Positions 27,528 to 64,000 of a stretch of DNA of 64,000 nt are shown here, piece by piece. The position numbers and the translations under genes are program-made. The notes under the pieces are model-generated. The model did no database searches. It worked only from the letters and a program-made list of their open reading frames with translations, and was not told where the DNA came from. Position 1 is the first letter of the stretch, and each line of letters begins with the position of its first letter. Source of the stretch: Schmidtea polychroa (taxonomy: Eukaryota); contig CM097885.1 in assembly GCA_044892525.1 (NCBI GenBank), forward strand, positions 160,270,001 to 160,334,000, given 5' to 3'.

Positions 27528-28022
27528 TTCAATGGAAAAATAAACAGTGGTGAAATTGGAAAAAAAATTCTTATAATAAAATAATAAATTTAACATATTG
27601 ATGTGAATGAAATGTATGAACAATGAAATCTGTCATTCTGAAAATATCAATATTTGACACTTAAAAACCTTCTCAAATATATTGCGTGTTTTAATAATAT
27701 TGTAAAAAAAATCAATTATTGGAAATTGTTTATTTTATGGACGTGAGAAATAAGAAATTCACGGTAGCCAATACAAATGAAAGTGAATCAAAGCCATTAA
27801 AACACTTCCTTATATATTTTTAAACGTATTTGAAACCTTTTTATATAATGTTGACATAAACTTTAGCCAAAAATTAAATTGACATTTCCCATTAACTAGA
27901 AAATAAATCAACTGAATAATATTTTCATTTTTACTACCTAAAAACTCCGAATAAACACAAGTCAACTGTACCATATGTAAAGATCACTGGTTTTAAAATA
28001 TACATTTCTTAGAACGACTTAC

Positions 28023-31986: not shown

Positions 31987-32039
<53 letters not shown>

Positions 32040-37850: not shown

Positions 37851-37922
<72 letters not shown>

Positions 37923-38097
37923 ATAACTATTATAATAGTGTCGAAACTTGTGAAATACTCTTACAGCATAGATTTCAGACTTGTGGCACTATTCGTACAC
38001 ACATAAGCCTTCCTCTTTATTTGGATAATGGGAAACTATAAAAGGGGAATCTATGTTCCATCGTCGGCAAAACATTTTATTACACAATCAAAAAGAA

Positions 38098-38142
<45 letters not shown>

Positions 38143-44100: not shown

Positions 44101-47100
44101 AAATGCATTAATTATTCGTTTTTTAGTGTAATATTTTGTAAATTTTGATTTCTAAATAAACATTGTATCCAAGAATACTCATTTTTTTAAATACCAATAA
44201 CGCAGGTAAACCCTTGTAACCCCAGATGTTGGAATGTGATTTTAAAGGGGGATTATTTTTTAAACAAAAAATCAGAATGAGAAATATTAATTTTTGAAGA
44301 AAAACTTACTGTTAATTATTCCTTTATAAACGTTTTATCCAAATAACAGACTATATTAATAAAACATTAAAAGCATTCAATCTGAATACAGTTTTTGATA
44401 GATCTACTAGGTGTTCTTTCACTAATGGAACTGGAGTCAGAGAATTAAGAAAAAATTGTACAACTTTAATAACTGTAGGAGTATAGCAATTTTTATTTAA
44501 AAAATTGGACGATATGGGTACAGAAATTATTAAAAAATTATTGAGGTACTAAAAGGAAAATGACTGAATATTGAAATGAAACATTAATAACGTCATTTAT
44601 TCATCTAAAAACTAGAGATTAGGGTTTCTACCTCGGTAAAAATTTACCGGTAAATAATTAAGCAAAAAATCGTCTAGTTTAAATAAAAAATTATTATAAG
44701 TGTTGGGCTAGAGCCAAAAATTGAGAGCTTGTTTTAATGAGTCGGAAATACATAGCATAGAAACCGCACGAATTAGAATTAAAATCTATGATTATTCACC
44801 AAATAATACAAAGTAAAGTACACAACACATTGAGAATAAATAAAACACGTATAATAAAATGAAGGAATGCAAGAAATTGCAATCACCAACACAATTAAGA
44901 GAGAAATAACGCTTTTGAAAAACCTGCCAACTCGAAAATAAAAGAATAATAAATAAAATAAATAATTGTGTAAAATACTTTTTTACGGATGTCTAACATT
45001 TGAATAATATAAACATTGCAAGCTTTGTGATACCCAGTGCAAATCCAAATAGTAGACTAGTTTCTAGCATTTGGCTCTCATCAGTACTATGCAGGAGACG
45101 CGAAGATTTGATTCAACTCTATTGCATACTTAACTGGAACACTGGAAATCACATCACTTGCAAATTAGCTAATTCACAGAAAAAATATCTGCAAACTTGT
45201 CAACATGGCGTATGAAAAATCATATTCACCCCCGGAGACCAAAATAGTCTATACACAGAAACGTTTACGGATCCACTTGTAAACAGTTCCTGTTTATAGA
45301 CTATATAGAACAACATTTATGAATTGGGAAAAAGGGCGGATCCCTGCGCAAAATTGAATAACATCCAGTAATTAAGATCAACCAATATACCGCGTTAGTC
45401 GAAGGTAACCGGTAATTCAAAAATGTTTTTAATATTTTAGAAGTTTATCTCAAACTTTTATGGTTCATGAAATTTTGTTTTTGAGTAATTTTTGAAGTTT
45501 TTATATCAACTTAAAAATCAATTTTACGATATCTTTTTTATACTATCATTTTTTTCTTAAAATTGTCTAAAAAAAAGTTATTAATATTGCTAATATTGCC
45601 TCATAAATATATATTGTAAGTTTGGATCTATTTTTTAATGAGTTATGTTTGTGTTCCGTATTTATTTTTTTCACCTTTTCAATTTCTATAGTGTAGTGTA
45701 TCTCATTGCACTTGTAAAGAATAACATCAAGTGTTTCTATATTATAACGTTATTTATTTTTCCCCAATATTAAAGGTGTATCTCAGTGGAGTTTGATATG
45801 GTGAAAAATTAAAAAAGTATATTGTAATCAACATACTTCTGATGGATTTGAGGCTTGCGTAATGGAATTTATTGCAGTATTAGTCAAGCTTATTATTTTC
45901 CAATTTTGATTTCCTCCAACATCCTTGATTTCCACAAAGTCTTTCATTCTATAAAAATCAGAAATGCATATGCTTCGATGATATTTCTTTTCATAAAGTT
46001 CCATGAATTTATAGACCGACAAAGAATACCCAGCAACAGATTTCAATAAAGTTGCTACTTCTTGTTTGATGTTAATTGGCGATGGAATTGTATTATTACT
46101 AACGAGATTAACCTGTATTCGTTTGTATCCAATTTTCTTTCGGTGAAATTGAGAAATAGCCAATCGGGCGTCTTCCATGCTGCCCAATCGCACTATTCCA
46201 CAATTCGATCCATCTGGTTGAGTTTGAATCAAAACACTGTGAACTCGTTTAATTGCATTTTGAAATTGATTAAGCAATAATTTCCTCCATTCTTTCGCGC
46301 TAATATTATAATCAAGATTCGTAACAAGCAAGTCGATACTTTGTCCATTAGAAATATTTGATTCCGAGGATTCGTTTGTGATTGGTAAATTTGCCGTTCG
46401 GTGAATTGTTGTCGACTTGTTTCGATTGCTGTTTTCTGAAGAATTTACTGGATTTCCTTTTAATGAAATCGATTTCGATTTATTTCGAGTTGACTTGAAA
46501 GACTTTCGGAAATTTTCTTGAGATTTATACGGAACATTTTTATCTTGATATTGGACAATTCGTTTTTGAATAATTTGATTCATTTCGTTTGATGCGGCTT
46601 TAACCGATTCAATGTTATTCGAGCTGACATTAATGTAATTGCTGTTCAAATAATTCGTTGGCTCAATTGAATTCACCTGGATGTTGTTTAAAACGGCTAT
46701 TTGGTTTGATTGGTAATTCATTTGGGGTAAAAATGAATGAAGGTGGTTCATGTTGACCATTGTTCGATAATAATCAGAGTTATTAATGAAATTAGTATTT
46801 TGCAATCCTATATAGTATCCTTCGGGGCCGGTTTCGTTAGTTGTGTAATTAAATTGATAATTTATTGCATTACTAGCATTAGGAATAGGATTGATATTCG
46901 GGATTGGATATAGTGGAGTATTAATTTGTCCATTGAGATTTTGTGGCACATATGTAGGATAATTCGCATCAAACATATGAAGAAATTGAGGATCATTTGA
47001 TTGTTGGATTGATTGGAAATTATTTGCTATTAAATTCGAGTTTTGAAATGCTTCTTCTTCACTTATGAATGACTGGATTGGCTGTTTTAAATATTCAACA

Positions 47101-47162
47101 GACTTATTAGAGATCTGATTCGACTGACCAATTGGATACATCTGTTGTGTTTGATAATTCAT
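28023..47162 (-). CDS. MARF1: MARF1/Limkain-b1-like RNA-binding protein (RRM + multiple LOTUS/OST-HTH); exons 47162-45837, 43455-43143, 43102-42989, 36764-(gap 36075), 30774-30235, 28314-28023
   Basis: RRM DLLVTNLDY...HRKKIGYKRIQV; GVPLEHLLNCIQGIKI; LOTUS repeats [36 protein letters not shown] and [31 protein letters not shown]. GT-AG junctions are phase-consistent where visible. Confidence 0.92.
28503..29385 (+). mobile_element. TA-flanked MITE (Tc1/mariner-like), copy A
   Basis: TA|CACCAAACACCACTGAGA...TCTCAGTGGTGTTTGGTG|TA. Confidence 0.85.
30096..30160. mobile_element. 65-bp hAT-like TIR remnant
   Basis: CAGTGTTTTCCAAC...GTTGGGAAACACTG; flanking 8-mers differ (ATCTACAA vs ATATAGGC). Confidence 0.45.
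31011..31547 (+). mobile_element. hAT (TAGGGTTGCCA-type) ends / MITE; duplicated left end at 31011 and 31436
   Basis: TAGAGTTGCCACCTCTCCG and TAGGGTTGCCACCTCTCCG; degenerate right end GGTAACAACCCTTA at about 31547. Confidence 0.45.
31987..32037. repeat. (AAT)n microsatellite
   Basis: Direct reading. Confidence 0.95.
32725..32850 (+). repeat. Dispersed repeat, copy 2 (see 18555-18680)
   Basis: Reverse-complement similarity to 18555-18680. Confidence 0.45.
33199..34018 (-). mobile_element. TA-flanked MITE, copy B (inverted relative to copy A); partial copies at 34021-34206, about 34780-35000 and about 45420-45800
   Basis: Same TIRs and TA flanks; internal sequence is the reverse complement of 28503-29385. 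Confidence 0.85.
35928..36074. other. Assembly gap (N run), truncates a MARF1 exon
   Basis: Run of n. Confidence 1.
37142..37852 (-). mobile_element. piggyBac transposase 3' remnant with terminal TTAA|CACATT end
   Basis: DNYYNSVETCEILL...CGTIR, CIYDYKKFMKCVDRAD, IVRRTKKWAK; TTAA at 37138-41. Confidence 0.8.
37673..38138. repeat. About 180-bp near-perfect inverted duplication (37673-37852 / 37921-38100) around (TA)n, followed by a second (TA)n
   Basis: Arms differ at a single position by inspection. Confidence 0.9.
38545..39070 (+). repeat. G-rich minisatellite arrays (14-bp GGAAGGTAGTGGAT and 13-bp TTAAAGGTAGTAG units)
   Basis: Direct reading of tandem units. Confidence 0.9.
45049..45090 (-). 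ncRNA. Minimal type-I hammerhead ribozyme motif (degenerate stem II closing pair)
   Basis: Minus strand ATAGTA-CTGATGA-GAGCCAAATGCTA-GAAAC-TA-GTC-TACTAT: perfect 6-bp stem I, intact CUGAUGA/GAAA core, GUC cleavage triplet and short palindromic stem III. Confidence 0.7.
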
Positions 47163-49758: not shown

Positions 49759-50161
49759 TTTATGACATTGAATTATAAAATTTTTAGTTATATTATAATG
49801 AACTAGAGAGAGAGACGATGAACAAAAAGTAAAATGATTCTAACAAACGAGGCAAGTTTTTGACTATTTGGATTACTAAATGCCCTTTTGGAATGTCAAA
49901 GTGTCAATGGAAAATTTCCGGAGCTTTGCATAATTTATTTTAGGTTTATAGTTATTTTATTTTATTTTTATTTAATTCTTCTGTAAGTATAACTATATTA
50001 GATTGTTACATTTTAATCACCATTGCCGTTTTTGACAATTTCTCAATTAGGTTTGGTTTTCTTTTTGGTCATTGTCGTCCCCATAACGTCGGGGAAAGGA
50101 TATTTAAAAAAACTATACAGCTCACCTCGGGACTATTTAAACTATACGGCTCACCTCGGGA

Positions 50162-50415
50162 CTATTTAATGCCCTATGTAAAAAATATGAAATAAAACGC
50201 AACCGAATCGCTGCTTACAACTCACAAGTAAACGGAAAAATCGAAAGATTACATAGGATACTTAAAAAAAGCATTAGAAACAGAGCAAACGACAGATATT
50301 GGCTCACCGAACTACCGACAATCCTACTGGGTTTAAGGAGCACCCCCAAATCAATCGACAACGATAGCTCTTCTTTTAAAGTTTTCGGCAGACAATCAAA
50401 TCTCCCATCACTCAA
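50162..50415 (+). pseudogene. Gypsy integrase C-terminal core fragment
   Basis: LFNALCKKYEIKRNRIAAYNSQVNGKIERLHRILK...WLTELPTILLGLRSTP...VFG. Confidence 0.8.
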
Positions 50416-50651
50416 AAACAAAACAACAAAAAATACAGAAACAAACAAACAAAAGTAATTTTAAAAAGGAGACCTGACGCAATAGTAAAATTGAAGAAAA
50501 TAAAAAATCGATGCAAAAAGAAATTAGAGAAGAAATTTCGAGAAATAATAATCTTGGAAATAAAAAGGACAAAAATCTGTGAAAACAAAAGAAATTGAAT
50601 TTAAGAATCGTCAAACGTGTTGGGGTTACACCTCGGCTGACCACTCTACCA

Positions 50652-51109
50652 TGTTGACGGGTCTAAGGGTTGATTGTCCATCTCGAATAAAAGGTGCCAC
50701 CGATTTGTCAACCTGGAGTGAAACCCCACATAACTTTCTTCCAACATAGTGCCCGTGAATCACTTCACGTTGGTACTGCACTATGCAGGCGAGACGCCAG
50801 CAAGCAGGTGAGCTTCTGCCTTAAAACTACTCCTTGCTGAGGCCTCGACTTCCCATTCACGACTGCCGATAGAAGGGCTTACGTCCATTTCCTTACACAA
50901 CCGCTTATCGGGATTCGCTGAATGCAAATTGGGAATTTCTCACTAGATCTTGCGGGTTCTCTACTCGACCCACTTAATTAAAGTCTAATTATTCATGAAC
51001 GAAGACGTGTAAGACAACAAGATTTATTAATTTCAATGTTATGACACAAGGATTCAGCTGTACACTTTACTAACGTTTATCGAAAGAAGAGAAAACATCG
51101 TAATCAACA
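50652..51109 (-). mobile_element. Putative LTR-like segment (TGTTGA...TCAACA), relatively GC-rich
   Basis: 6-bp terminal inverted repeat; minus-strand AATAAA followed by a GT-rich tract; no TSD, boundaries uncertain. Confidence 0.35.
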
Positions 51110-51151
51110 TAGATCGGATCCTTGTTCCTCATCCTGACCGCCACTGGGATT

Positions 51152-51904
51152 TTATTGTTTCTCCCATTCAGTGTCGGCGAATAATTCGTCGAGGTTGAAA
51201 AACTCGGAAGCGTTCTCTTCCCACCTTACGCCAGCGGCTGATATGATTCGTGCCGAGGGTCCCGTTGTTAGGTCGATGGACACGTGAGAGTTGCCACCGC
51301 TGGTTGAGTCCTCTATTGCTGGGATGTTTGGCTTTGTAGTAGCGCGCTCGCGCTGTCTCTTCTTGCGCTCTGCACGAGAGAGTTGTTTTCGCTTGGGTTT
51401 GCTTGAAGATGCCACTTGCAGAAGGGTGACTGATACGGATGGACTAGCAGTGGGGGGCTTACTGGTACCCGTGATGACAACATCTGGTCGCTTGGGGGAC
51501 AATTCGGTTTCGACGCAGTCTCGGCACGGTCTCTTGAATGGTGGAGATGGATTCGAGGAAAGGTTGTGATGAGGCGGAAAGATGTCATCGGCCTCTCGGA
51601 TGGGAATCTGCACTATTTTTCGGGTTGTAGCCGCCTGCACGTAAACCTTATGCAGTGCCTCGGATTGTTCTCTGATTAGACTTCTTTGGGCACGGCTCTC
51701 AGATATTAGCGCGTCCCGGCAATGCTCGCTACGATCGAGCTTCCTTTGGATCTCTTTCATCCGAGCGGGACTAAACCATGTCCCTTCCAGCTCGTCTATC
51801 TTCCTCTTGTAACGTCCAATCTGAGTTTGTAGGTCCTTTATCACCGTATTTTTATCCGCGCACGAGAAGCACGGCCGTAATGCTGATTTAGTGGTTGGTA
51901 GCAT
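51152..51904 (-). CDS. Uncharacterised protein (CxxC + coiled coil, Pro/Ser linker, basic NLS-like stretch, acidic W/F-containing tail); probably TE-borne
   Basis: Intact, relatively GC-rich ORF (262 aa from 51940; likely start 51904 after an acceptor-like TAG). Confidence 0.65.
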   Translation of the reverse strand: MLPTTKSALRPCFSCADKNTVIKDLQTQIGRYKRKIDELEGTWFSPARMKEIQRKLDRSEHCRDALISESRAQRSLIREQSEALHKVYVQAATTRKIVQIPIREADDIFPPHHNLSSNPSPPFKRPCRDCVETELSPKRPDVVITGTSKPPTASPSVSVTLLQVASSSKPKRKQLSRAERKKRQRERATTKPNIPAIEDSTSGGNSHVSIDLTTGPSARIISAAGVRWEENASEFFNLDELFADTEWEKQ

Positions 51905-53854
51905 GCTTGCTATAAATAATACTAATGAAATGTAGAACATACGATTTTAGAATAAATTAGATACGACCTACGGCCATTCGTGGATGCTTGACCGACGAAA
52001 AGAAGGAAAACTTATTCTACAATCCGGTTTTACCACGGATCTTATTTGTTGAAACAATTTATTTAACCAAAGGCCATCGGTTTGACGCATGCTATTAACT
52101 TTGACTCTCTATTGATCTAACCGTATACATGAGGGGCGTAATAATTAATAGGGGGTAAATATAATATTGGTGAAACACTATAATAATGCTTTAGTAGAGG
52201 GACATTATAGTATGCGACTACACCTTGCTATAAATCATCTATTTAAATTTATTACAAACAAATTACTATCGCTATTCTCAACATATTTTTTGATTCGAAA
52301 TTTGTTATTGGAAGTGCACTTTTAATTCGGTAGTGAATGTGATTATCTATATTGTCTACCATTTGTCTGAGAATATGTGATGAGTTTACATCAGCCATTA
52401 CTTGAACACCCTAATGGGATATCTCATCGGTCATAACACATGTCCAAATTTACGGATACTACTGTCGACTAGTTGATTACATTATCGACCTATTGTGAAT
52501 GTCACGTGTCGCGACTATTATGTATGCTAGTCTGATATTCTGTGCTCTCACCACATGGATTCGTGTATGGCTACTATCTTATCTCACTCACTTGGTGTAT
52601 GCCATTTTCACGGTGATTTTATCGATCCTGTTGTCGTATGATTTTCTCTGCACAGTGATTTAATTGAGTTATGATTTATGCTACCGCCAGTTCTCATCGC
52701 GGAATTTTACCCTTATCAACTTGTGTGAATGATCACCATCGTTTGGAAATTTATTGGATCTTTTCAGTGATCGTCGAGGGAATAATGCTACCAAATACTG
52801 AAGCATATTACTACTCTCGTCATTCTACTCGGATTTTCCTATTCAGATGTAATGCCGTCTCGATGAAACCTGCCCTTAGCCATTCGAAATTTTCTCTCAG
52901 GTTCAATAATTTGGATATATACAGTGATGCCCTGGCTCTTATTGTAGAAATAAATGTTATTAATTGAATTTGATGATATTTTACCTGTTTATAATTTTTG
53001 AAATAACTAAGTCTATAAAAACTTTCTGATTATAATATTAGAGAGGTTTTCGTAGAATCTCGCATTTTTCAGTTTCGAGTTAGTTAAAGTTTTTAGGATA
53101 CTTTCGTAACCCGACATACAATCTGGACAGGCTAGATGACGTTGGGTCTATGATAACGGAATTTCATACGAAATTAGTTCTACTGAGTCCGGCAAATAGA
53201 CGTTGTCGCAATTAACTTGATGAAACCATGTTTCCAGATGAAGCGTACTATGAGATGTCGTTATTTTTGACGAAGTTCACTAAATCGTTGTCTGGATCTC
53301 ATTTTTCAATAGGGGTAAGATTTACGAAAACGACTTGACGAAAGAAAAAGGAATGCGACGCCCTCAGTCACTGTGTAAATCCTTGAAAATCCCTTCATTC
53401 GTACGACTATCTCTGTGAAAATCATTGTCTGCCAGCGATTCTTTTAACCATGACCCCTTGTGATAATTTAGTCGCATCTTCAGCGATAGGACCCGTGAAG
53501 AAGCCTTCACATTTCGGCCCAATCTAGCTGCGTGATTGAAATACTCCATGTCCACCGGCTGAGCTCCCGAAGGCACCTCATACCATGACATGGAGTATCT
53601 CAACTCCACGTTACTCGTTAAATGAAAATTCATAAAATCTTTAATTCAAATAAAATACGGACATCTGGATAAAAATATTTTATTAATTCTGAAATACTTA
53701 AATAATACAAATTACATCAATACGTTAAAGTTATTAAAATGAAGAATCAAATGAAGAGAGTTAACTAAAATATTTAATCGTTAATATTTAACATTACTAT
53801 TAGCTTTGCAAATACTTAAATAAATCTATAAACAAATGAAATACCCCTCACTAT

Positions 53855-54483
53855 TGTTAGGCTGAGTCAAAATTCAATGTTGTTCGTTCCAAATAGTCCT
53901 AATGGTGGTCCGTTGGATGTCGATTGTTGTGATGAATGGTATTTCGGTCTCTGAACTGGTTTTGAATAGATGTGGAGTTTTCTGAATGACGGTTGCTTGG
54001 CTAGTAGTGTCGATCCTATGAAATGCTCGGGGTTAACAGTAAAAACAGTAAACATTTTTCTTACCTATGAAATGCTCGGGGTTAACAGTAAATTTAATGT
54101 TTTTGGTAGTTGTATATATATCAAATTCTTATTTGTGCGGACCAATCAGAGTTGAGTACCGCTTATTTCTATTAATTTAATATAATTTTCTTGTTTTTAG
54201 GTTGTTTTTTCCTTATTTTCTTTATTTTTAATATGTTTTTCTATTTATTTCCTTAATTTCCTTATTATTTCTTGAATTCCTCTTTATTTATTTGTCAACT
54301 TGTTCTATTTTAATCTTTTCTTAATTTTATTTTTTGTTTTAATTCTTATGTCTTAATTATTATTTTCCTTATATCTTATTCTATTTTATTTCTGATTTTA
54401 TTTATTTTATTTTTATTTTTCTTAATGTTCTACTTCCCTACTTTCTTATTTTTCAACGATTAAATTTTCGACTCAGCCCAACA
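53855..54483 (-). mobile_element. LTR (629 bp), probable 3' LTR of the large cargo-bearing element
   Basis: About 20-bp terminal inverted repeat TGTTAGGCTGAGTCAAAATT / AATTTTCGACTCAGCCCAACA. Minus-strand A-rich U3, ATTGG (CCAAT) box and TATATATA. Flanks are not a TSD, consistent with one LTR of a larger element. Confidence 0.6.
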
Positions 54484-54717
54484 AATCACTCGGGGACCCA
54501 TCAAAATTGCGTCCCGCAATTGCATAATTAACTTAATTCATTCATTCAAAAAAAAAAAAAAAAATATAACACGAACACTGAAAATTATACAACAATGATA
54601 AAAATTTTATTGTAAGATCAAGGTCAAAGCAAGACCAAGCAAGTATCACTTAAGGTGATAGTTGGTACATACAATAAAAGTTTCCACATATAATAACACA
54701 AATGTTTGAATTAGAGT

Positions 54718-55386
54718 TTATGAATTGTTAACCATTGATGCTTCTGCTGGCGGCTGTTGGTTGGTTTGGGTATTGATGTTGAGATAGGTCTGACTATTAG
54801 ATTTCGGCTGGATTGGTTGATTACTCGGGGTTCGAGGTCGGAATGGGGTTGGGTTAAGATTTGTCAGGGGCACTTCTTGAGGATTTTGGTTCGAGGTTAC
54901 TCTTATTGATGTCGAGATTCTACATCTATTTCGAACTTCGTAAATTTTCATGAATATTGGTAGACATAGGAGGAGGGTCTCTGCGATCACCACATATATG
55001 AGATAATGGGTGTCATTGATCTCGGGAGGTGTTTTTGGCTTTTCTACAAGATTTTCAAAATCCTCTTGTTGCATTTGTTGTTCCAACTGGTCGATCTGTT
55101 GGCTTTGTTCGAAGATTTGTTTGTTTATCATTTTACAAATGGGATTCTTTTTACACATTGTTTGGATGTTGTTGATGTGTGATCGGGTTGATTGAATGGT
55201 TTGGATGATATGGGTTTTTACGGTCATCGGGTATGTGCATTGACTGGATTCTTGTTTAGGTTCTTGATTTTGATTTCGGTAATCTCGTACGATTTTCGGT
55301 TGGGCGTTTAATTGTTTGTTCTCCATCAGAATCATCAATACCATCATTGTTATCATCATCTCGCCTCGCATGATACTATTATACAT
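54718..55386 (-). CDS. Element cargo: type-I membrane protein (signal peptide, helical Cys-containing ectodomain, TM, Pro/Asn-rich tail)
   Basis: MMITMMVLMILM..LNAQ leader; TM YLIYVVIAETLLLCLPIFM; intact 222-aa ORF. Confidence 0.75.
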   Translation of the reverse strand: MYNSIMRGEMMITMMVLMILMENKQLNAQPKIVRDYRNQNQEPKQESSQCTYPMTVKTHIIQTIQSTRSHINNIQTMCKKNPICKMINKQIFEQSQQIDQLEQQMQQEDFENLVEKPKTPPEINDTHYLIYVVIAETLLLCLPIFMKIYEVRNRCRISTSIRVTSNQNPQEVPLTNLNPTPFRPRTPSNQPIQPKSNSQTYLNINTQTNQQPPAEASMVNNS

Positions 55387-55426
55387 TCATTATGTTTATT
55401 TACAATTGGTTTTAATGACCCTTAAT

Positions 55427-56179
55427 TTAATGGTTCTGATTTGGATTATTTTCACCGATTCTCATCAAGGTGGACTCTGCTTTAATTACCCTGTGTCTTA
55501 ACTCGGGCAGCATTTCCAATTGTCGGTCTTTTTCACGGGCTTCTCTCTTTAGATGTCTAATTTCTTTTTCCAAGCGTCTAATTTCTTCCCTTTTCTTTTC
55601 AAGGTTTCTTTTTAGCTCGATTTGTAGGAGATCTTGTTCGTTTTCTTGCAGGTAATTTTGTTGTTGATGTTTTCTTTCTATTTCTCTATATTTGCGGACC
55701 CACTTCCTCATTTCTTTACTTTCCCGTTGGTTTTCTTCTAGTTGTCGTTTTAATTTATTTATAGCTGTTTGGCGCTCCTTCGCCTCAGTTTTCCAGTAGT
55801 CTTGGATTACCTCCTTTGCTTTGAAGCTTGCCCTCTCTTTCCATAGCTCTTCCGCTATCTTTTCCCAGTTTTTCCCTCGCTTCCTTTGTTCGTGTAGCCA
55901 TTCATTTTCCTCTTCCGTTTCTCTTTTTATTTCCCCCAACGCTTCGCACTCTTTCTTTAACACCTTTATCATTTTCCGGTCCTCTAGGTATTTGTTTATT
56001 AATCTCCCGTTTTCGTATTTCTCTTCCCGTAACTCGGCCTTTAGCGTTTGTGTTTCTGTTGTTTCTGCCTCAATCTCTCCCTCTTCTACGTCGCTCATAA
56101 TTTCTATCATTTCCTCGATTTTCATATCTATAATATGTACAGTTAATGGTGCGCTATAGTGCGACTTATACGTATACAT
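55427..56179 (-). CDS. Element cargo: coiled-coil protein (likely start 56125)
   Basis: E/K/R-rich heptads over about 220 aa; intact ORF. Confidence 0.75.
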   Translation of the reverse strand: MYTYKSHYSAPLTVHIIDMKIEEMIEIMSDVEEGEIEAETTETQTLKAELREEKYENGRLINKYLEDRKMIKVLKKECEALGEIKRETEEENEWLHEQRKRGKNWEKIAEELWKERASFKAKEVIQDYWKTEAKERQTAINKLKRQLEENQRESKEMRKWVRKYREIERKHQQQNYLQENEQDLLQIELKRNLEKKREEIRRLEKEIRHLKREAREKDRQLEMLPELRHRVIKAESTLMRIGENNPNQNH

Positions 56180-56293
56180 TGATATAAAATTTAATAGTTT
56201 GGGTTACAGTCCCTTGAATACTTTTACAATACTTTAATTTTTTTGTTTGGGATATACGTCCCGGTTTTTAGTTTTTCATCTTTTCATCCACCC

Positions 56294-57403
56294 TTATACG
56301 AAGGTTTCCTCCTGGCCTACATAACCTTCATCACTATCGACCGCGGAATGTAACTGTATCGCAATAGGGTCGTATGGTAGGTAATATTGGGGAATTTGAG
56401 CTCTCAATTCATTAATTTCGTCTCTTAGAGCTCGAGTGATGTTCAATTCCTCGTCGAGCAGATAGGTGAGATACCTTGTCTCTTCGTCTTTCGCCTCTAT
56501 CTGTTTGTCTAGGGCCTTGATTTTCTCGTCGCCCTTCCATTTTTCAATTTCTATTTCTAAGTTTTTAATATTTTCGGTGTACATTTTCCTTTCGTTTTCT
56601 AATTTTCTGTTTTTTCCCGCTAGGACCATGTTTCTTTGTTCCAGCGATCCTTGTAATCCATTAAGGTCTCTTTTCATTTCTTCTACCTGATTTACTAATT
56701 CCACAACCCGTCCCGCTTGTTGGGTTATCATCTCTTCCATTGCGGCATTCTCGTGCTCTCTTATGTCGCACTTCATTGCCAAATGTCGCTCAAACTCCAT
56801 AGCCTTTGTTTGCCAGGTTTGGCTTCGGGCGGCGACCTTTCTCAACCTTTTCAATTCTTCCTTTATTATTAAATTCTCCTCCCATTTACCTTGTTCGCTT
56901 TCATATCCGAGTCTCATGGGCAATTCTTTCATCTCTTTTTTCATTTCTCTGTTTTGTCTTTTCCATTTTCTCGCTTCTGCCACTAAGTGCATCATTTTCC
57001 TGTCTTCTATTTGTTTTTCCGCTTCGCGCTTGGTGTTCTCATCGGTAAGTCTCTTTCTCGCTTCCTGCACTAGCTGCTTTAAGTAGTGGCTGTGTGCTTC
57101 TTGGCGGGTATTTTCTAGTGACGCCCATTTTGATGCTCTTTTGCATGCTTCTGCTTCCGCTCTTAAGTTGTGTATTAACCATTGGTATTGACTATTCTCA
57201 TCTTCTCTAGTTTCTTCGATGTGATTTCGGGTGAGATTAGTTAGTTGGAACATTACTTTGTTCCATTTTTTGTTATGTTCTCGGAGAATTTGTGTCTTGT
57301 TGACATTGGTTGGGTCTATCACAGTTTCGGTTATTTTCTCTTTTGTCATCTCTAAATCATAGACATCGATTAATCTTTTATTATGAAAAAGGAATTTATT
57401 CAT
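56294..57403 (-). CDS. Element cargo: long coiled-coil (SMC/myosin-tail-like) protein (likely start 57349)
   Basis: 369-aa intact ORF with continuous heptads and an acidic C-terminus. Confidence 0.8.
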   Translation of the reverse strand: MNKFLFHNKRLIDVYDLEMTKEKITETVIDPTNVNKTQILREHNKKWNKVMFQLTNLTRNHIEETREDENSQYQWLIHNLRAEAEACKRASKWASLENTRQEAHSHYLKQLVQEARKRLTDENTKREAEKQIEDRKMMHLVAEARKWKRQNREMKKEMKELPMRLGYESEQGKWEENLIIKEELKRLRKVAARSQTWQTKAMEFERHLAMKCDIREHENAAMEEMITQQAGRVVELVNQVEEMKRDLNGLQGSLEQRNMVLAGKNRKLENERKMYTENIKNLEIEIEKWKGDEKIKALDKQIEAKDEETRYLTYLLDEELNITRALRDEINELRAQIPQYYLPYDPIAIQLHSAVDSDEGYVGQEETFV

Positions 57404-57541
57404 TATTTACTGTTTCTTGGGGAATTTTCGCATCATTTTTGGGTTTTCATATTTAGGGTTTTCATACTATTATTATATAATATTTTATTGGTTATATACA
57501 CCGATATATACAGATTATTATATACAACATTATTCGATTGG

Positions 57542-58930
57542 TTACTCCGTTCTACCCTTCTCCTCTTTCCTCACGGTCATCTTGATATATATGGTATCAT
57601 TTCTCGCCATATCTTCTACTCTTTGTTGTGAGATGAACGTAGGTGCTCCTGTTGCTGATCCTTCTTCGTTGAGGGGCCTCTGGTAAGCTATTTGATTCCC
57701 CGTTGTTTTGAAGCTTTGCTCATGTATACTTTGGTTGTTCATCAGAGTAATATCGATTTTTGCCTGGAACGGCCATTCTAATATTTCGTCGTATTCTCCT
57801 TTACATAACAGAAAGAAAATCGAAAAGTGCGTATCCAATCCGGTTCCGTCCCCGTTGGGATATACCTTCATTTTCATTTTGTACCCATTTTTCCAAGAAT
57901 GGAATGTAGGACTTGTTATTCTTGTCTCTTCTCCGGTTTTTGCTTTTCGTATTCTTTCTTTTACTCCCGTTATTTTCCATATGTAGGGTGCTGTTGGGGT
58001 TATCTCATTTAGATTTATTTCCCGTATTTTCTGATGTAGCTCCTTGGCCTGATTATTACTGATTTCTGTTCGGTTTATTTGCATCTTTATGTTTGCTCGG
58101 GCTTCTTCGAACGCTTCCCTTTCTTCTAGTAGTTCTTTGACTAACACTTTCAACGATGTTATCTCTATCTCCATTTGTTTTACTTTCTCTTCGCTTTCTT
58201 GTAGCGCAGTCGACCACATTTCTGCGTGAGTTGAAGCATTTTCTACTAAATGATGTGGTAACTCACCTCGGTGTAGTAGTTTCTGACAACCCCATCTACC
58301 TAGTACACATGTCATTCTTTTCTTTGCGCATTCCCTTAGATGCTGTGCCACCTTCATTATTTCCCCTTGGTTACATCCGTTTGGGCATTCCCCACTGAAC
58401 TCTGCACATACTCTCTCCTCTTGGACATTGTGATGTTTGAGGGTGAGATTTATCCACGTATCTATTTCTCCACAGTGTTCACATCTTTCCAATCTCTCTT
58501 CACACTGCCTTTGATGCTCTTTTTCTTCGCTTGCTCGAATGGTTTTATGGCACCTTTCACACTGGCCAATTCTGTACATACATTCTCCCATATGTTGTAC
58601 TACCTTCCATATTACTCCTTTCCATTCGCATGGGGCATTTTTGCATCCCAGGTTGGTGTTTAACATGTCTTTCACTGCGGCTTTATCCTCGTTAGTGTCT
58701 TCTAAACTCGATATTAGTGTCTCTTTACACACCGGGCACCTCTGTGGTCTATTCTTTATTGCTTCACTGATACATTCTTTACATACTCTGCATCCACATT
58801 GCGTTTGGTGAGGTTCCTTTAACAACTTTTCACATATTCCGCACATAACATGTTTGTGTATTCTGATCGTTGTAGATTTTCGGACTTGCTCGACAATCTC
58901 TCTGAACTCTTCTCTTTGTCGTTTATCCAT
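57542..58930 (-). CDS. TRAF: Element cargo: full-length TNF receptor-associated factor (RING, about 5 TRAF zinc fingers, coiled coil, MATH/TRAF-C)
   Basis: CGICEKLLKEPHQTQCGCRVCKEC...CPVC; C..C...HxxxC fingers; MATH YIWKI...SPTF...GYKM...YPNGDGTG..THFSIFF.L.KGEYD..L.WPF...G.P.F. Intronless. Confidence 0.95.
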   Translation of the reverse strand: MDKRQREEFREIVEQVRKSTTIRIHKHVMCGICEKLLKEPHQTQCGCRVCKECISEAIKNRPQRCPVCKETLISSLEDTNEDKAAVKDMLNTNLGCKNAPCEWKGVIWKVVQHMGECMYRIGQCERCHKTIRASEEKEHQRQCEERLERCEHCGEIDTWINLTLKHHNVQEERVCAEFSGECPNGCNQGEIMKVAQHLRECAKKRMTCVLGRWGCQKLLHRGELPHHLVENASTHAEMWSTALQESEEKVKQMEIEITSLKVLVKELLEEREAFEEARANIKMQINRTEISNNQAKELHQKIREINLNEITPTAPYIWKITGVKERIRKAKTGEETRITSPTFHSWKNGYKMKMKVYPNGDGTGLDTHFSIFFLLCKGEYDEILEWPFQAKIDITLMNNQSIHEQSFKTTGNQIAYQRPLNEEGSATGAPTFISQQRVEDMARNDTIYIKMTVRKEEKGRTE

Positions 58931-59015
58931 TCTATAATTATATGTACAAATAGTTCTTATCGATACAGATTCGATATTTTATTTACAATTATTTACATTT
59001 TAAGCTAGGTTTGGT

Positions 59016-59399
59016 TTAGGGTTCGGAAGAGTCGGCTTCGTGCCCGCTCTCCTCTCTATTCATTAGCCATTCCGACCAGTCTTCTATTTCTGTCTGTTCT
59101 GCTTCCTCCATCATTCTGTCTATTTCAATTTCCCGTCGACGGCTATATTGGGTTATCCTCTCTATCTCTCTTTGCATTTGTTCGATTTTTACCCTCTGGT
59201 CTTCAATTATCTTCAAATAACTAAATCCTCTGTTCATACTCTCGATCAGGTTTCTGTGCATCGTCAGTCCTTGTTCTTGCAAATTGGACACTAATTGTGC
59301 TAATACGGCACATTGTTGCTTCCATAATTCTTCAGTTACTGTATTGTGGTTCATTTCGTTATTTCCTTGATCCATTCCTAATTTATATACACTTTTCAA
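59016..59399 (-). CDS. Element cargo: small coiled-coil protein (likely start 59375)
   Basis: Intact 127-aa ORF, heptad-rich, acidic W-containing tail. Confidence 0.65.
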   Translation of the reverse strand: MKSVYKLGMDQGNNEMNHNTVTEELWKQQCAVLAQLVSNLQEQGLTMHRNLIESMNRGFSYLKIIEDQRVKIEQMQREIERITQYSRRREIEIDRMMEEAEQTEIEDWSEWLMNREESGHEADSSEP

Positions 59400-59535
59400 C
59401 TCTTATGTAAATTTAATTTTATTTTATGATTCCCGTTATTGTATAATATTGATACCGCGCTTATATAGAGATATAGTACTGTTATATACATAAGATATAC
59501 TTACTTTTTACAATTATATACAGTCATATTCCTTT

Positions 59536-62500
59536 CTATATACGTGAGTTTGGAGGGCGCTGAACGTTCCAGGCCTCCACCCACTGTTCTTGTTTGATAT
59601 CACTTGGTCGTTTCACTCGATGTTGGAAGTTTCTGATTCGGGTCATTTCTAGTTCTCCGCGATGTCGTTTATCTTTAATTATTTTTATTGTTCCCCCCGT
59701 TATGATTAGGAATGCCCCTGTTATTATTATCCCACTGATCCACATCATCTGCTTCACGCTTATACTCTCTGGTTTTTCCTTGTTTGTTAATGTTGATATC
59801 GCTTCTGTACTTTTCTCGTTTCCTCTTTTGCCATTTCCTTTCATCATTTCCCGTATTCTTGCTATTTCCTCGTTCATACCCTCCTTTGCCATCTTTTGTA
59901 TTTTTTCCATCTCTTCCTCCGAAACATAGTTGTCCTGAGCTTCCTCACCAGTTTTCTTGTGCTTTCCTCCTTCGTTCTTTTCGTCGTGGTTTTTTCTTTT
60001 CTTTCCTCTTTTCCCCGGGTATCGTCGGCATTCTCTTTTTGATTCATTCCTCCAGATACAAACCGTGTATTCTTTCGGCGGCTGCTGCTGCGTCACATAT
60101 TGATGGCATCTCTCGCCTGGTCCTAATCTTGAAATACAGACTTTGTGCTCTTTTCTAGGTTGGATCTGCGTTATTACTACTTCACCACCTTTTCCTAGGT
60201 GTACCTCTTTTCCTTTGACGTTCGTTATTCTCTTCCCGTCTCGATTTCGGTATGCTTCTTGTATTCTTACTTCTGTTATTGGTTCTGTGGCCTCATTTAT
60301 CAGTACTAGTTTCTGATACGCTCTAGACATGCATCTTCCTAGTATGCACCTTTCCTTTAAGTCCCATTCTTCCTTTAAATCCCACTGCTGCTCTTGTGCT
60401 TGCTTTTTCTTTTCTTGCTTTAGTTCATCCTCTTTGCTATCTTGATTCTCCGCTTCTTTGGTTTCTTTTATCGTTCTCGTCCCTCCCTGAGCTGTTACTA
60501 ACTCTATCATGGTAAGCATAATTATCATTAATATCATATTTGTCTCTATTTCTTTGTTAGTGAAAGGTAGGCATACCCTCTGTTTTCCATTATTCGATTT
60601 TTCCTCCTCTTTGGTCTTAGTTCCCGGGCTGTTTCCCTCTCTTTTCGTATCCGAATCCTTGTTTTCCGGTTTACCCTCCTCCTGTTCTCTTTTCTCTTTA
60701 TCCTCCTTTCGGCCTTTTCCGTTATTGTCATCGTGTTTATCTCCCCCGCTGTCGTTTAAAATGTCGTCCTCGACATTTATATCGTTCAATAATCTGCGAT
60801 ATGCTGTTAGCACTCTGTTTCTTGCTAATTTTGCTTCGAATTCAAACTCTTTTCTACCCGTTGCAGCATGTCTCTTTCTATTCCATTCTTTAACTAACTC
60901 TCTCAATTGCATACGACGATGTTTCCCAATTCGTTGTTGCTCGTTCTGATTTTGCGTGAATTTTAGGTCTTCTCTATTTAATACTATTAAAATTATTTTA
61001 GGTGTCCCCCCCTTAGTTAGGGTATTCTTTACCATCGCATTTTCTCCGTTTTCGTAGAATTCGTTTACATTTATCGCATATTTATTATTTTGTGGTACTC
61101 TCCAGGTTAATAATAATTTCATTGCTTCTAGATTTTTCCGTACCGCATTCCATTGAAACTGAGATGTGTTTTTGCACATATTTTCGACTTCTTCTTTTGT
61201 CGCATTTTTGCAAATAAATCTGATCATTTCTAAGTTTGGCTGTATGGTTGCCCAGTCCAAGGTGGAATTTCCTTCATTGGACTTTTCGTCTAGTTTCGAT
61301 CCTGATTGATGTAGGATGTGGAGTGTTTTTGGGTGTATTTTCGTTATAGCTGCATACATCATGGCGGTTTCACCTTGTTCATTTTTCGTGTTGGTTTCCT
61401 CGCCCATCTCTCCAAGGATTCTCACGATCGTTATTGCTCTATTTTCTTTCGCCGCTAGTATTGCTTGTTGTAGGGGTGTTCTGGAATCCTTCGTTACCAT
61501 CGTAAATGCTCGAGGCAAGAAGGTTTTGATTTTCCCGATATCTAAATCCGTGGTTTGATCTCTTGCGTATGTGTGTACGGCTTTTATTATTTTGGACAAT
61601 ATTATTTCGTCTGGCAGCTCTAGCATTTCCTCAAAGAACACTTCTTTTGCTTTGCGTATTATTGCCTCTTGATCTATACTCATTGATTTGGTTTCGATGA
61701 CGTTGTTTGTGACCGTTTGGTTCGTTGTTGACTTTGATTCCCTGGATTTCTCATACCTTATTTTCGTTTTCTTTCCGTTTGGATTATTGATTCGTTCCTC
61801 TGCTGTAAGTATTTGGATAATATCCAGGTAATTCTCGCGGATGTTATTCATTGTGTCCATCATATATAACACACTTACCGTTTCCCAATATTTATTTCGT
61901 ACTTGGTTAGTAAATTGGAATAGGGATTTTTCGAATGTGTCGATTCGCTTTTTTGCTAACTGTTCGTCTTTATGATTTGTGAATTTTATCCCTCGTTCTA
62001 GTAATTGATTCGGGATTTCGAATAACTGATGTCCTTTCATAGCTTCTCTCATCAGCGTGTTCTCTCCTCTCGTGAACGCTTCGTTTACGTTGATCCTATA
62101 ATCGTTTCGAATTGGATTTCTCCATGTGATTAATATTCCGGTAATTGTCGTCAGTTTTTCTTTGATCGCTGTTAACAATCCATCATACATGTTTCCGACT
62201 TCCCGATTGTCCTCATATGATAGTAGTTCCATCAATGACGTGAACGCCTCGGTACTTCTCCCTTCGATAGCATGGTGTAGAGCGTTTTTCCGCTCGTGGT
62301 CTTGTGTAGTTATTTTCGATCCGGTATCGAGTAATGCGGTTATAATGTCTTTTGTTTTGCCTCTGTTTGCGGCTATCATTAATGGTGTGTAACCTTGGTT
62401 GTTTGTTTGTTCTGTTGATCGCTTGCAGTCGTGAAATGCTTCTATTGTTTCTAGTATTTGCTCGTTGTTACCTACTTTCATGAGTTTGTGTAATGGTGTG

Positions 62501-64000
62501 TCTCCGTAATGATCTGTTATTGTAAATAATATTGGCCATTGGCTTTTGACTACTCGCAATAATGGGTGTGTCCTTTCTCTATTTGCATAGTTCTCGATCA
62601 TCGTCAATAATCCTCCTAATATTTCGAAATCTAATCGATCTTTTGCCCATCCAGGTATTTTAATTTTTACCTCTTTTACAATCTTTTCCGCTTCTGATGG
62701 TTGGATACCTAATCGTCCAGTGATCGGTTCTGCGGGTTGTTGCATCATGTTCATTCGGTAGGTTTGCGAACGTGTGGTTAATGTACGGCCTTCTGGTTGA
62801 CTAGTGGCTGTTTTTGGAATTGATTTGCATCGTGCCACGTTTACGTATATTGGTCTGGTAAAGGGGTTATTTACCAATTTCACTCTTACATTAGTTTCGC
62901 CTACGAATAAGATCTCATATGGTCCTTTTCCGTTGCGTTGTAACTTTTTTGTGGTTCCTGGAATTAATTCCGGGGTTTCTATCATTACCCAATCACCTGT
63001 TTGGAACGTATGTTGCTTCACGTTTTTCTTTCGATCGTGTAAATCTTTATAACTTTCCTGGTAGAACTTGATATTTAATCCCGCAGTTTCCCAAATTTCT
63101 TGCATTCTTTCCTTGAATTTCGTAACATAATCATCGATCTCCATATACTGCGATATCGGTGGTTGGTATTCCAGGTCCATTGGCATATTACATTCTCTTC
63201 CGTACATTAATTTGAATGGGCTCATTTTCGTTGATGCGTGAATCGACATTCTGTACGCCATAAGACATAGGTTTATATATTCGTCCCAATCTCGTTGGTG
63301 ACGGTCAACGTAGTTTGATAACATTTGTATAAGTGTTCCATTAAATCTTTCCGTCATCCCATTGGTTTGAGGGTGGTATGGAGATGTTCTTAGTTTTGCT
63401 ATTTTGAAGTAATTTGTTACTTCGCTCATTATCTCACTCATAAAATTAGTTCCCTGATCGGTTAAGATTTGTTTTGGTGTTCCATATCGGCAACATATCT
63501 CTTCTACCAAAATTTTTGCGATTGTTTTAGCTTTTTGGTCTGGCATCGCGAATGCTTCTGGAAATTTCGTAAGAAAGTCTGTGATCACTAGAATGTAAAC
63601 GTTTCCTTTATCTGACTCTGGTAGTGGACCAACTACGTCCATGGATATCATTGTCATTGGTTCTATTGGTACTGGCATTGGCGTTAAAGGTGCTTTCCAT
63701 TTCGATCCAGTATTCTTCCTGGTTGCACAAGTTAGACAATTTTTTACCCATTCGGTTACATCTTCAGTTAACGTAGGCCAAAAATATTTCTGTTTCATTC
63801 TTGCTAACGTCTTTTTCGATGACATATGTCCTCCCAATCTCCCATCGTGATATTGCGTTAGTAACTCTTTTCGTCGGTTTTCCGGTATACACATTAATCG
63901 TTTTTCCCCATCCATTATCAGCAACCAATCTTTCTCTATAATATATCGGTGTCGGTGTTTATCCATATGTTCTTTTAATTTTTGGTCTTTCGCATATACC
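59536..64000 (-). CDS. Pol C-terminus: integrase (H2C2 zinc finger, DDE core, GPY motif) fused to two ankyrin blocks and a signal-peptide/ectodomain/TM module; ORF open to the window edge
   Basis: H..GH...CLTC, SMDVVGP, TDQGTNF, YHPQTNGMTER, KGPYEI; ankyrin GDTPLH, GYTPLMIAA, RTPLQQA, GETAMMYAA; hydrophobic MILMIIMLTMIELVTAQ and WISGIIITGAFLIITGGTI; no stops over 1476+ codons. Confidence 0.93.
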   Translation of the reverse strand, partial: VYAKDQKLKEHMDKHRHRYIIEKDWLLIMDGEKRLMCIPENRRKELLTQYHDGRLGGHMSSKKTLARMKQKYFWPTLTEDVTEWVKNCLTCATRKNTGSKWKAPLTPMPVPIEPMTMISMDVVGPLPESDKGNVYILVITDFLTKFPEAFAMPDQKAKTIAKILVEEICCRYGTPKQILTDQGTNFMSEIMSEVTNYFKIAKLRTSPYHPQTNGMTERFNGTLIQMLSNYVDRHQRDWDEYINLCLMAYRMSIHASTKMSPFKLMYGRECNMPMDLEYQPPISQYMEIDDYVTKFKERMQEIWETAGLNIKFYQESYKDLHDRKKNVKQHTFQTGDWVMIETPELIPGTTKKLQRNGKGPYEILFVGETNVRVKLVNNPFTRPIYVNVARCKSIPKTATSQPEGRTLTTRSQTYRMNMMQQPAEPITGRLGIQPSEAEKIVKEVKIKIPGWAKDRLDFEILGGLLTMIENYANRERTHPLLRVVKSQWPILFTITDHYGDTPLHKLMKVGNNEQILETIEAFHDCKRSTEQTNNQGYTPLMIAANRGKTKDIITALLDTGSKITTQDHERKNALHHAIEGRSTEAFTSLMELLSYEDNREVGNMYDGLLTAIKEKLTTITGILITWRNPIRNDYRINVNEAFTRGENTLMREAMKGHQLFEIPNQLLERGIKFTNHKDEQLAKKRIDTFEKSLFQFTNQVRNKYWETVSVLYMMDTMNNIRENYLDIIQILTAEERINNPNGKKTKIRYEKSRESKSTTNQTVTNNVIETKSMSIDQEAIIRKAKEVFFEEMLELPDEIILSKIIKAVHTYARDQTTDLDIGKIKTFLPRAFTMVTKDSRTPLQQAILAAKENRAITIVRILGEMGEETNTKNEQGETAMMYAAITKIHPKTLHILHQSGSKLDEKSNEGNSTLDWATIQPNLEMIRFICKNATKEEVENMCKNTSQFQWNAVRKNLEAMKLLLTWRVPQNNKYAINVNEFYENGENAMVKNTLTKGGTPKIILIVLNREDLKFTQNQNEQQRIGKHRRMQLRELVKEWNRKRHAATGRKEFEFEAKLARNRVLTAYRRLLNDINVEDDILNDSGGDKHDDNNGKGRKEDKEKREQEEGKPENKDSDTKREGNSPGTKTKEEEKSNNGKQRVCLPFTNKEIETNMILMIIMLTMIELVTAQGGTRTIKETKEAENQDSKEDELKQEKKKQAQEQQWDLKEEWDLKERCILGRCMSRAYQKLVLINEATEPITEVRIQEAYRNRDGKRITNVKGKEVHLGKGGEVVITQIQPRKEHKVCISRLGPGERCHQYVTQQQPPKEYTVCIWRNESKRECRRYPGKRGKKRKNHDEKNEGGKHKKTGEEAQDNYVSEEEMEKIQKMAKEGMNEEIARIREMMKGNGKRGNEKSTEAISTLTNKEKPESISVKQMMWISGIIITGAFLIITGGTIKIIKDKRHRGELEMTRIRNFQHRVKRPSDIKQEQWVEAWNVQRPPNSRI

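Follow-up and report, generated by a model that had tools for sequence, protein, structure and literature searches.

A young, intact 30-kb Burro-type retroelement of Schmidtea polychroa whose conserved extra genes may damp host death and immune signalling

Introduction

Why should a run of intact reading frames with signalling and membrane domains stand beside a Gypsy integrase? The question is raised by a stretch of 64,000 nucleotides from the planarian Schmidtea polychroa (GenBank assembly GCA_044892525.1, contig CM097885.1, positions 160,270,001 to 160,334,000), hereafter called the window. An earlier note, made from the letters of the window alone, had placed at 53855-64000 a large, intact Gypsy-type retroelement with a linked cargo of a TRAF, ankyrins, two type-I membrane proteins and three coiled coils, and had pointed to the giant Burro elements of planarians. 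Burro/GYPSM1 is described in section 7 of PMC6431247 as an element of over 30 kb with a first open reading frame (ORF1) of 4,873 amino acids (aa), an in-frame env and accessory ORFs. The domains reported for it there are MATH_TRAF_C, BIR, ankyrin, Smc, Bcl-2, ubiquitin-like and dUTPase-like (PMC6431247), and it was suggested, in a proposal left untested there, to meddle with apoptosis and ubiquitination (PMC6431247). When PIWI is knocked down, the level of BURRO1 RNA goes up (PMC8532177). Our analysis leads us to the view that the window holds part of an intact and recent 30-kb copy of a Burro-type element, and that the conserved extra genes likely serve the element, damping signals for death and immunity wherever they are expressed. 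We put the probability of this reading at about 0.6.

Results

When 53855-54483, which the earlier note had taken for a long terminal repeat (LTR), was used as a query against its own genome, a 100% match was found 26,152 bases to the right. Extended from this 629-bp query, the repeat measured 3,866 bp, with TG...CA ends and with 3,866 of 3,866 positions identical between the two LTRs; the query proved to be only the first 629 bases of an LTR at 50618-54483. The inverted repeat at 53855 is internal: in all 22 loci bearing this site the LTR continues with ATAGT(A/G)AGGG (the G of the window occurs in 2 of the 22), and no element ends at the inverted copy of the LTR start (22/22 loci), which rules out the 629-bp unit as an LTR or an independent element. 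The whole element spans 30,018 bp (G000:C1:160320618-160350635, sense on the minus strand), with an internal region of 22,286 bp. The stretch singled out in the earlier note makes up its 3' third, and 16.6 kb extends past the right window edge; there we use extended coordinates, which become G000:C1 positions when 160,270,000 is added. The 5' LTR that the earlier note had proposed to seek on that side is present and identical, and the gag, protease (PR), reverse transcriptase (RT) and RNase H (RH) regions are also found there. Among other copies, a 4-bp target-site duplication was seen in 8 of 8 scorable cases (2/10 were not scorable), and the LTR pairs of ten other copies, taken from the best-scoring matches, were 99.92-100% identical. 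The element is genuine and intact, was inserted recently, and is very young.

Read from 5' to 3', the element consists of the 5' LTR, a primer site, a 161-aa RING ORF, a 74-bp tandem array lying between this ORF and ORF1, ORF1 itself, five accessory ORFs, a GC-rich motif and the 3' LTR. Its features are as follows (signal and transmembrane (TM) segments were called by hydropathy).

50614-50617, no strand: target-site duplication, left copy, 4 bp; the right copy follows the 5' LTR, outside the window
50618-54483, minus: 3' LTR, 3,866 bp; the identical 5' LTR is at extended 76770-80635, beyond the window
51152-51940, minus: LTR-encoded 262-aa ORF with a hydrophobic N-terminus, a helical middle and an Arg/Lys-rich stretch; no Pfam family
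53855-54483, minus: first 629 bp of the LTR in the sense direction, closed by the internal inverted copy of the LTR start
54484-54530, minus: conserved GC-rich motif at the expected place of a polypurine tract, not purine-rich
54718-55386, minus: 222-aa predicted type-I membrane protein with signal peptide, Cys-bearing helical ectodomain, TM at 129-145 and variable tail; likely start 55371
55427-56179, minus: 250-aa charged, predicted coiled-coil ORF; likely start 56125
56294-57403, minus: 369-aa ORF, charged and predicted to be coiled coil; 351 aa in most copies, with the likely start at 57349
57542-58930, minus: intronless full-length TRAF, 462 aa, with RING, Cys/His-rich zinc-finger region, coiled coil and MATH (RING and MATH by Pfam)
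59016-59375, minus: 119-aa helical ORF, 36% identical to the 151-aa ORF of a sister family over 55 residues
59536-64000, minus: 3' end of ORF1, which continues beyond the window to extended 73389
59536-60543, minus: C-terminal membrane protein of ORF1, with a signal-like segment from 60543, an all-beta ectodomain at 60010-60390, TM at about 59700-59750 and a 50-aa tail
61100-62520, minus: two ankyrin-repeat modules in frame after the integrase (Pfam Ank_2, E=1.4e-19)
62900-63890, minus: Gypsy integrase with H2C2 zinc finger, rve core and C-terminal domain (Pfam)
Extended 75942-76427, minus: 161-aa RING ORF (IAP-type), upstream of ORF1 and right of the window

The six minus-strand frames between 54718 and 64000 are co-oriented and stop-free, as had been noticed earlier, and fill 8,623 of 9,517 bases; in 200 shuffles the longest stop-free run was 187 codons. 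The run of frames is real, and the 10 kb once placed downstream of the integrase includes the integrase. The ankyrins and the first membrane protein, taken earlier for separate ORFs, are in frame with the integrase and form the end of a 4,617-aa polyprotein. From the proposed cargo list, the integrase, ankyrins and RING-MATH TRAF were recognised by Pfam and both membrane proteins have a signal and a TM segment, but the coiled coils are seen only as charged, Pro/Gly-poor ORFs. The fusion glycoprotein, the Bcl-2-like domain and the upstream RING gene all lie right of the window, outside the view of the earlier note.

ORF1 is stop-free over its 4,617 aa and joins Gag, a Bcl-2-like domain, a fusion glycoprotein, PR, RT, RH and integrase (IN), ankyrins and a membrane protein. 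The domain order in Pfam is Retrotrans_gag (E=1.6e-10), CCHC (three knuckles at aa 251-265, 271-285 and 287-303), Monjiviricetes_fusion, protease, RT, RNase H, integrase and ankyrin. The fusion glycoprotein (Env; PF24664, E=2.9e-70) lies in frame before the protease, with an RxKR site at 1862 and a TM segment at 2180-2196. It has 759 relatives at E<=0.001, and protease or RT follows Env in 9 of the 12 long ones scanned. The RT motif YIDD is found at aa 2817, and aa 2510-2620, between PR and RT, gave no Pfam match to a dUTPase-like domain, for which the published call used HHpred. Of the ubiquitin-like units before the Bcl-2-like domain, one has a Pfam E of 0.004, one of 0.1-0.2 and the third none, all below the cut-off. 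The Bcl-2-like domain itself (aa 1484-1555) has a Pfam E of 0.021, also below the cut-off; its 12 best Foldseek rows are all of the Bcl-2 family, at E 0.19-0.67 and from a poor model (pLDDT 44), and a profile search of solved structures gave only E of about 2. A weak Pfam Bcl-2 match also precedes Env in P0001 and P0019. These tests, individually weak and mutually agreeing, suggest that a Bcl-2-like domain is present. A signal-like segment follows it at aa 1597-1617, called by eye and under the hydropathy threshold.

At its other end, ORF1 closes with a membrane protein whose ectodomain is predicted to be an all-beta sandwich of nine strands (pLDDT 68.5). Foldseek returned nothing at E<=0.001 for this ectodomain, the best VIA Z was 7.1, among unrelated beta-sandwiches, and no usable match to the ORF1 C-terminus was found in the ESM Atlas. 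Among 7 copies, 42 of the 50 columns of the tail are invariant. No MATH was detected by Pfam in the three overlapping parts of ORF1 scanned, nor any BIR in ORF1 or the eight other element ORFs scanned. Three Env-Pol polyproteins from other assemblies, P0002, P0007 and P0015, also run past the integrase into a signal-like segment, with a TM segment after it in P0002 and P0007 (all by eye); P0007, labelled bacterial by its source, is probably a mis-binned animal contig.

The accessory TRAF gave Pfam matches of E=2e-27 for MATH and E=1e-4 for RING. It matched solved structures of TRAF1/2/3 at E of about 1e-27, and the RING-zinc fingers of TRAF6 at E=1.5e-14. A large protein search returned nothing at E<=0.001 among 3,806 candidates, which is uninformative because the solved TRAFs match strongly. 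The three charged ORFs of 119, 369 and 250 aa have no Pfam family above the cut-off, and the 369-aa ORF is 32% identical to a 532-aa ORF of the sister family described below. For the 222-aa protein no Pfam family was found either, and the ESM Atlas gave only weak matches (unnamed ones up to 0.85, and one US6 row at 0.75). The LTR frame is shared more widely, an open ORF of 262-314 aa being found in 10 of 10 other LTRs.

We then consider how the cargo is distributed. Our genome searches scored the best candidates only, so that the copy counts are lower bounds and biased to young copies. With this scope, 92 of the 93 TRAF copies scored are free of stops, some 65 of the 150 top integrase matches (hand count) fall in frames at least 4,700 codons long, and at least 150 matches to the 222-aa ORF were scored, at 100% to 51% identity. 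Each of the four large contigs carries copies. We fetched twenty, picked to cover the range of divergence seen in the 222-aa ORF. Of these, 15 have the six coding units in the expected order (ORF1 being present as its end only in three), two have the five accessory ORFs in order with no ORF1 in the 10 kb fetched, and the other three are truncated or interrupted. The cargo occurs in many copies, is syntenic among them and is linked to the integrase, as the copy number and synteny check proposed in the earlier note was meant to reveal. At G000:C2:177678140-177730581 and similar pairs, three LTR-site matches stand about 26.2 kb apart with two cargo sets between them; these are tandem elements with a common LTR.

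In order to read selection, the ratio of nonsynonymous to synonymous change (dN/dS) was summed against the window copy over 12 to 20 copies per region, those with less than 60% aligned being dropped. The summed values were 0.01 for the integrase, 0.08 for the ankyrins, 0.10 for the ectodomain, 0.12 for the 119-aa ORF, 0.11-0.13 for the TRAF, 0.10 for the 369-aa ORF, 0.07 for the 250-aa ORF and 0.21-0.44 for the 222-aa ORF. Across ankyrins, ectodomain, tail, TRAF and the three charged ORFs the range is 0.07-0.16, with synonymous distances that reach above 1. The 222-aa protein is the fastest-changing unit, and its tail varies freely between copies. In all 13 regions the corresponding ratio for variants within the family (pN/pS) was higher for private variants than for those shared by at least two copies, and every region fell under a simple neutral expectation that ignores transition bias and relatedness. 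The cargo is almost certainly under purifying selection, and a large, intact, young Gypsy element with linked and selected cargo, as first proposed, is supported by LTRs, synteny and low dN/dS alike. Neighbouring ORFs of one copy may differ sharply in synonymous distance, which points to recombination: in the mosaic copies L040 and L042-L044 this distance is about 1.0-1.2 in the 250-aa ORF and 0.02-0.17 in the integrase, a pattern that points to an exchange of cargo modules between subfamilies.

Further evidence comes from a related family, which surfaced in a genome search for MATH; it is commoner and has its MATH within a 4,791-codon frame. Its copy at G000:C1:203518589-203553598 is 35.0 kb long, with 4,766-bp LTRs and a 4,688-aa ORF1 that contains MATH, and is 89% identical to the window element in RT, 62% in Env and 29% in TRAF. 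The two families share the primer site, the pre-LTR motif, the upstream RING ORF and the membrane protein after the ankyrins, as well as the 3' order of small ORF, TRAF, coiled coils and membrane protein. The sister family differs in its MATH within ORF1, in a 392-aa BIR-RING IAP after the TRAF and in having one ankyrin module, which is matched by both modules of the window element. The sister family carries the hallmarks published for Burro1. Since this Burro1-like family has the same cassette, the cassette is old and common to the group.

The same MATH search bears on the origin of the TRAF. Among its 150 best rows, 121 lie in frames of 671-4,846 codons (hand count), and retroelement copies dominate the MATH-domain matches in the genome at this depth. 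A tree was made of 40 MATH domains, from 30 fetched loci of the 150 scored (1,484 candidates) plus element copies. In it the element domains group with five intronless full-length host TRAFs (L004, L007, L008, L012 and L017; 454-473 codons, 27-31% identical to the element TRAF), with weak support (82/79) and a long-branch warning. These host frames are candidates for the source of the element TRAF or for its retrocopies. No other cargo was found in the 1.5-kb flanks of the 30 fetched MATH loci.

How the accessory ORFs might be expressed is suggested by their start sites. A (C/T)AG lies at most 6 nt from the start of four ORFs in 17/17, 17/17, 18/18 and 19/20 aligned copies, against a background of 20%, and the LTR has a candidate splice donor (AG/GTAAG) at about 54060-54066. 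Because an AG is conserved just before the accessory start codons, we propose that these ORFs are probably translated from spliced subgenomic RNAs. Four sets of assembled contigs (three of them guessed to be RNA) were compared with 54600-63900, and one putative RNA set matched all 30 bins, mostly at 90-95% identity; this match demonstrates neither transcription nor splicing.

As for signals of replication, the primer site of 18 nt matches the host tRNA-Pro(TGG) plus CCA at 18 of 18 positions and lies 7 nt inside the end of the 5' LTR (7-8 nt when the sister family is included). The tRNA-Pro pattern has 1,583 matches across the genome, and tRNA-Pro(TGG) genes form a long tandem array with a 475-bp unit from G000:C1:130901009 onwards (L059-L061). 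The core pattern of the GC-rich motif before the 3' LTR has 566 exact matches in the genome, with 0 for a control, and the sister family retains the core, as do 12 of the 12 copies listed. A stable hairpin at this motif was considered and is unsupported (z = -0.25).

Around the element, a 340-bp inverted repeat (92%) brackets the whole insertion (50148-50478, and about 9076-9412 of L002), and for this reason the element was probably inserted into an older one. The other transposable element remains in the window are fragmented, as the earlier note had said of the neighbours; the 262-aa ORF at 51152-51940, which is intact, is part of the LTR of the element itself and not of a neighbour. Exons of a MARF1/LOTUS-domain host gene were seen at 28009-47162 on the minus strand (Pfam MARF1_LOTUS, E=1.6e-8 for 45828-47162; further LOTUS-like exons by eye). 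The element has the same orientation as this gene and is located some 3.4 kb upstream of the last exon seen, and an NYN search for the start of this gene gave no match. MARF1 is linked to retrotransposon silencing. Elsewhere in the window, two adjacent minus-strand frames at 13699-15429 resemble a fragment of protein-primed DNA polymerase B (Polinton-like; by eye), and a perfect 215-bp palindrome centred on a TA run lies at 37672-38101, beside 13-14-bp tandem arrays.

Discussion

The element is very probably a Burro-type giant Gypsy element, and it is placed in that group by its length, giant ORF1, gag with knuckles, env position, Bcl-2-like domain, ankyrins and MATH/TRAF cargo. This homology, like the AT-rich genome, points to a planarian host. 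As far as section 7 of PMC6431247 describes Burro/GYPSM1, the two agree in a length of about 30 kb, multi-kb LTRs, a giant ORF1, accessory ORFs, tandem repeats and many copies, and in content they agree in Gag with its CCHC knuckles, a Bcl-2-like domain, an env placed between gag and pol, PR-RT-RH-IN, ankyrins and MATH/TRAF, with candidate ubiquitin-like units in the window element (PMC6431247). They differ in ORF1, of 4,617 aa here against 4,873 aa in that description, and in the lack of both an ORF1 MATH and a BIR in the window element (PMC6431247), which by the published description is distinct from Burro1. In the window element the TRAF gene runs whole from RING to MATH and follows ORF1, whereas the MATH ORF described for Dugesia tigrina is upstream (PMC6431247). 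Section 7 of that paper is silent on a primer site, on selection acting on the cargo and on the two additional membrane proteins, and in the literature searched, Grohme 2018 and Repbase apart, these and a whole downstream TRAF were not found described. The cargo types MATH/TRAF, ankyrin, BIR, Bcl-2 and Smc-like are published already in that paper (PMC6431247), and the earlier note's own caveat on novelty applies; the layout is that of the Burro elements. The element type is already known, and the window family is a further Burro-type member.

Two other comparisons are useful. The window element has a gB/chuvirus-type fusion protein between the gag and pol of a Gypsy element, as do the GAG-ENV-POL flatworm errantiviruses of HSV/gB type, in which a class III fusion protein precedes a Gypsy pol (PMC13524379); six gB-type env elements of Schmidtea mediterranea, Smed_errantivirus_1-6, are reported there (PMC13524379). 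By eye, from the material of that paper, the window Env is closest to Smed_errantivirus_5 and the sister Env to Smed_errantivirus_6 (PMC13524379). The main text of PMC13524379 names no TRAF, ankyrin, accessory gene or Burro, and no LTR or primer site is given for the six elements. Foamy-like fish endogenous retroviruses carry accessory ORFs (PMC6431247). With these and with complex retroviruses the window element shares the siting of accessory genes, both 3' and within the LTR, and their probable expression from spliced RNAs; it differs in its Gypsy-type pol, its class III fusion protein, an env that precedes pol in a single frame, and a size almost double.

Taken together, the following course of events may be proposed. 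Host tRNA-Pro would prime reverse transcription. From the two signal-like segments and two TM segments of ORF1 we predict a double passage through the membrane of the endoplasmic reticulum: the signal-like segment after the Bcl-2-like domain would place the fusion glycoprotein outside, the TM of the glycoprotein would return PR-RT-RH-IN and the ankyrins to the cytosol, and the second signal-like segment would place the beta-sandwich domain outside, with signal peptidase and the element protease releasing the parts. Spliced subgenomic RNAs would allow translation of the accessory ORFs. The TRAF (a predicted E3 ligase and adaptor), the IAP-type RING, the Bcl-2-like domain and the ankyrins would then act on host ubiquitin, apoptosis and JNK/NF-kB-type pathways, much as accessory genes of complex viruses do. 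Because of the homology of these four components, we lean slightly towards host signalling as the main job of the cargo.

Several observations weigh against this reading. Half of the cargo, namely the three charged ORFs and the two membrane proteins, is without signalling homology and could be structural; neither membrane-protein tail of this copy has a canonical TRAF-binding motif. Neither the Bcl-2 match nor the ubiquitin-like matches reach the cut-off, and the Bcl-2 region of the sister family has no Pfam Bcl-2 match. As to selection, the rate of the 222-aa ORF is inflated because the twenty copies were chosen by its divergence, and its tail (0.65 nonsynonymous) may be near neutral, given that the neutral expectation leaves out transition bias. 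As to expression, the AG counts are not independent because the copies are related, the 119-aa ORF has (C/T)AG in only 4 of 16 copies (those printed mostly have AAG), and no spliced read was seen in the four contig sets over 54600-63900, a range with the LTR outside it. Finally, no polypurine tract was found before the 3' LTR, where the GC-rich, non-purine motif stands instead, and plus-strand priming is consequently unexplained.

The cargo might mainly build, move and release particles, the coiled-coil and membrane proteins serving as scaffold, trafficking or attachment factors, and TRAF and RING providing ubiquitin for budding. We regard this as unlikely, if well worth naming: a fusion glycoprotein is present, the membrane protein after the integrase is an all-beta sandwich, and the 222-aa surface protein changes fastest. 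The distant P0002, P0007 and P0015 have a signal-like segment at the corresponding place, followed in two of them by what we take to be a fibronectin-type-III-like motif and a TM segment (by eye). However, the Bcl-2-like domain, the IAP-type RING, the TRAF and the BIR-RING IAP of the sister family share an apoptosis and ubiquitin theme, and signalling and particle roles can coexist. It is likewise a speculative idea, of similarly low probability, that Burro-type elements are complex invertebrate retroviruses. They would pass from cell to cell as enveloped particles bearing the fusion protein and one or two surface proteins, express their accessory genes from spliced RNAs, do without a polypurine tract in plus-strand priming, and rely on their own TRAF, RING and Bcl-2 for the survival of infected stem cells.

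One of the membrane proteins could also be a receptor mimic that recruits the element's own TRAF and signals constantly, in the way that EBV LMP1 signals constantly through host TRAFs. The TRAF, ankyrins and membrane proteins of the coherent kit proposed earlier are indeed linked, both membrane genes accompany the TRAF in both families, and the ORF1 tail is largely invariant; the 328-aa protein of the sister family has one PMEE motif, and TKQE occurs in the ORF1 tail of 2 of 13 fetched copies printed. This reading is nevertheless improbable, since the binding motif is lacking from 16 of 18 other 222-aa homologues as well as from the tails of this copy, and the 222-aa tail is not conserved. Less probable still is that the cargo is kept for the benefit of the host, as a domesticated source of TRAF and IAP activity on which stem cells or immunity would draw. 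In planarians the TRAFs are expanded and influence cell survival (PMC6109357, PMC7586133), but the cargo genes are carried by dozens of very young insertions at dispersed sites, many of them broken after insertion, and the excess of pN/pS in private over shared variants is what selection on a replicating lineage would produce. An assembly chimera, which the earlier note had named as a refuting outcome, or a young element with neutral host DNA as a passenger has nothing in its favour and a negligible probability, being refuted by the matching LTRs, the target duplication, copies on all four large contigs, dN/dS far below 1 and the same cassette in a distant sister family.

The reading we prefer, a recent Burro-type copy whose cargo acts on host signalling, has two consequences for planarian biology. 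As retroelement copies dominate the MATH matches, counts of the planarian TRAF expansion need to be checked for element-derived transcripts. Furthermore, this family makes the published idea of interference with apoptosis and ubiquitination, as set out in section 7 of PMC6431247, more testable, for here the cargo genes are separate, intact in many copies and under purifying selection.

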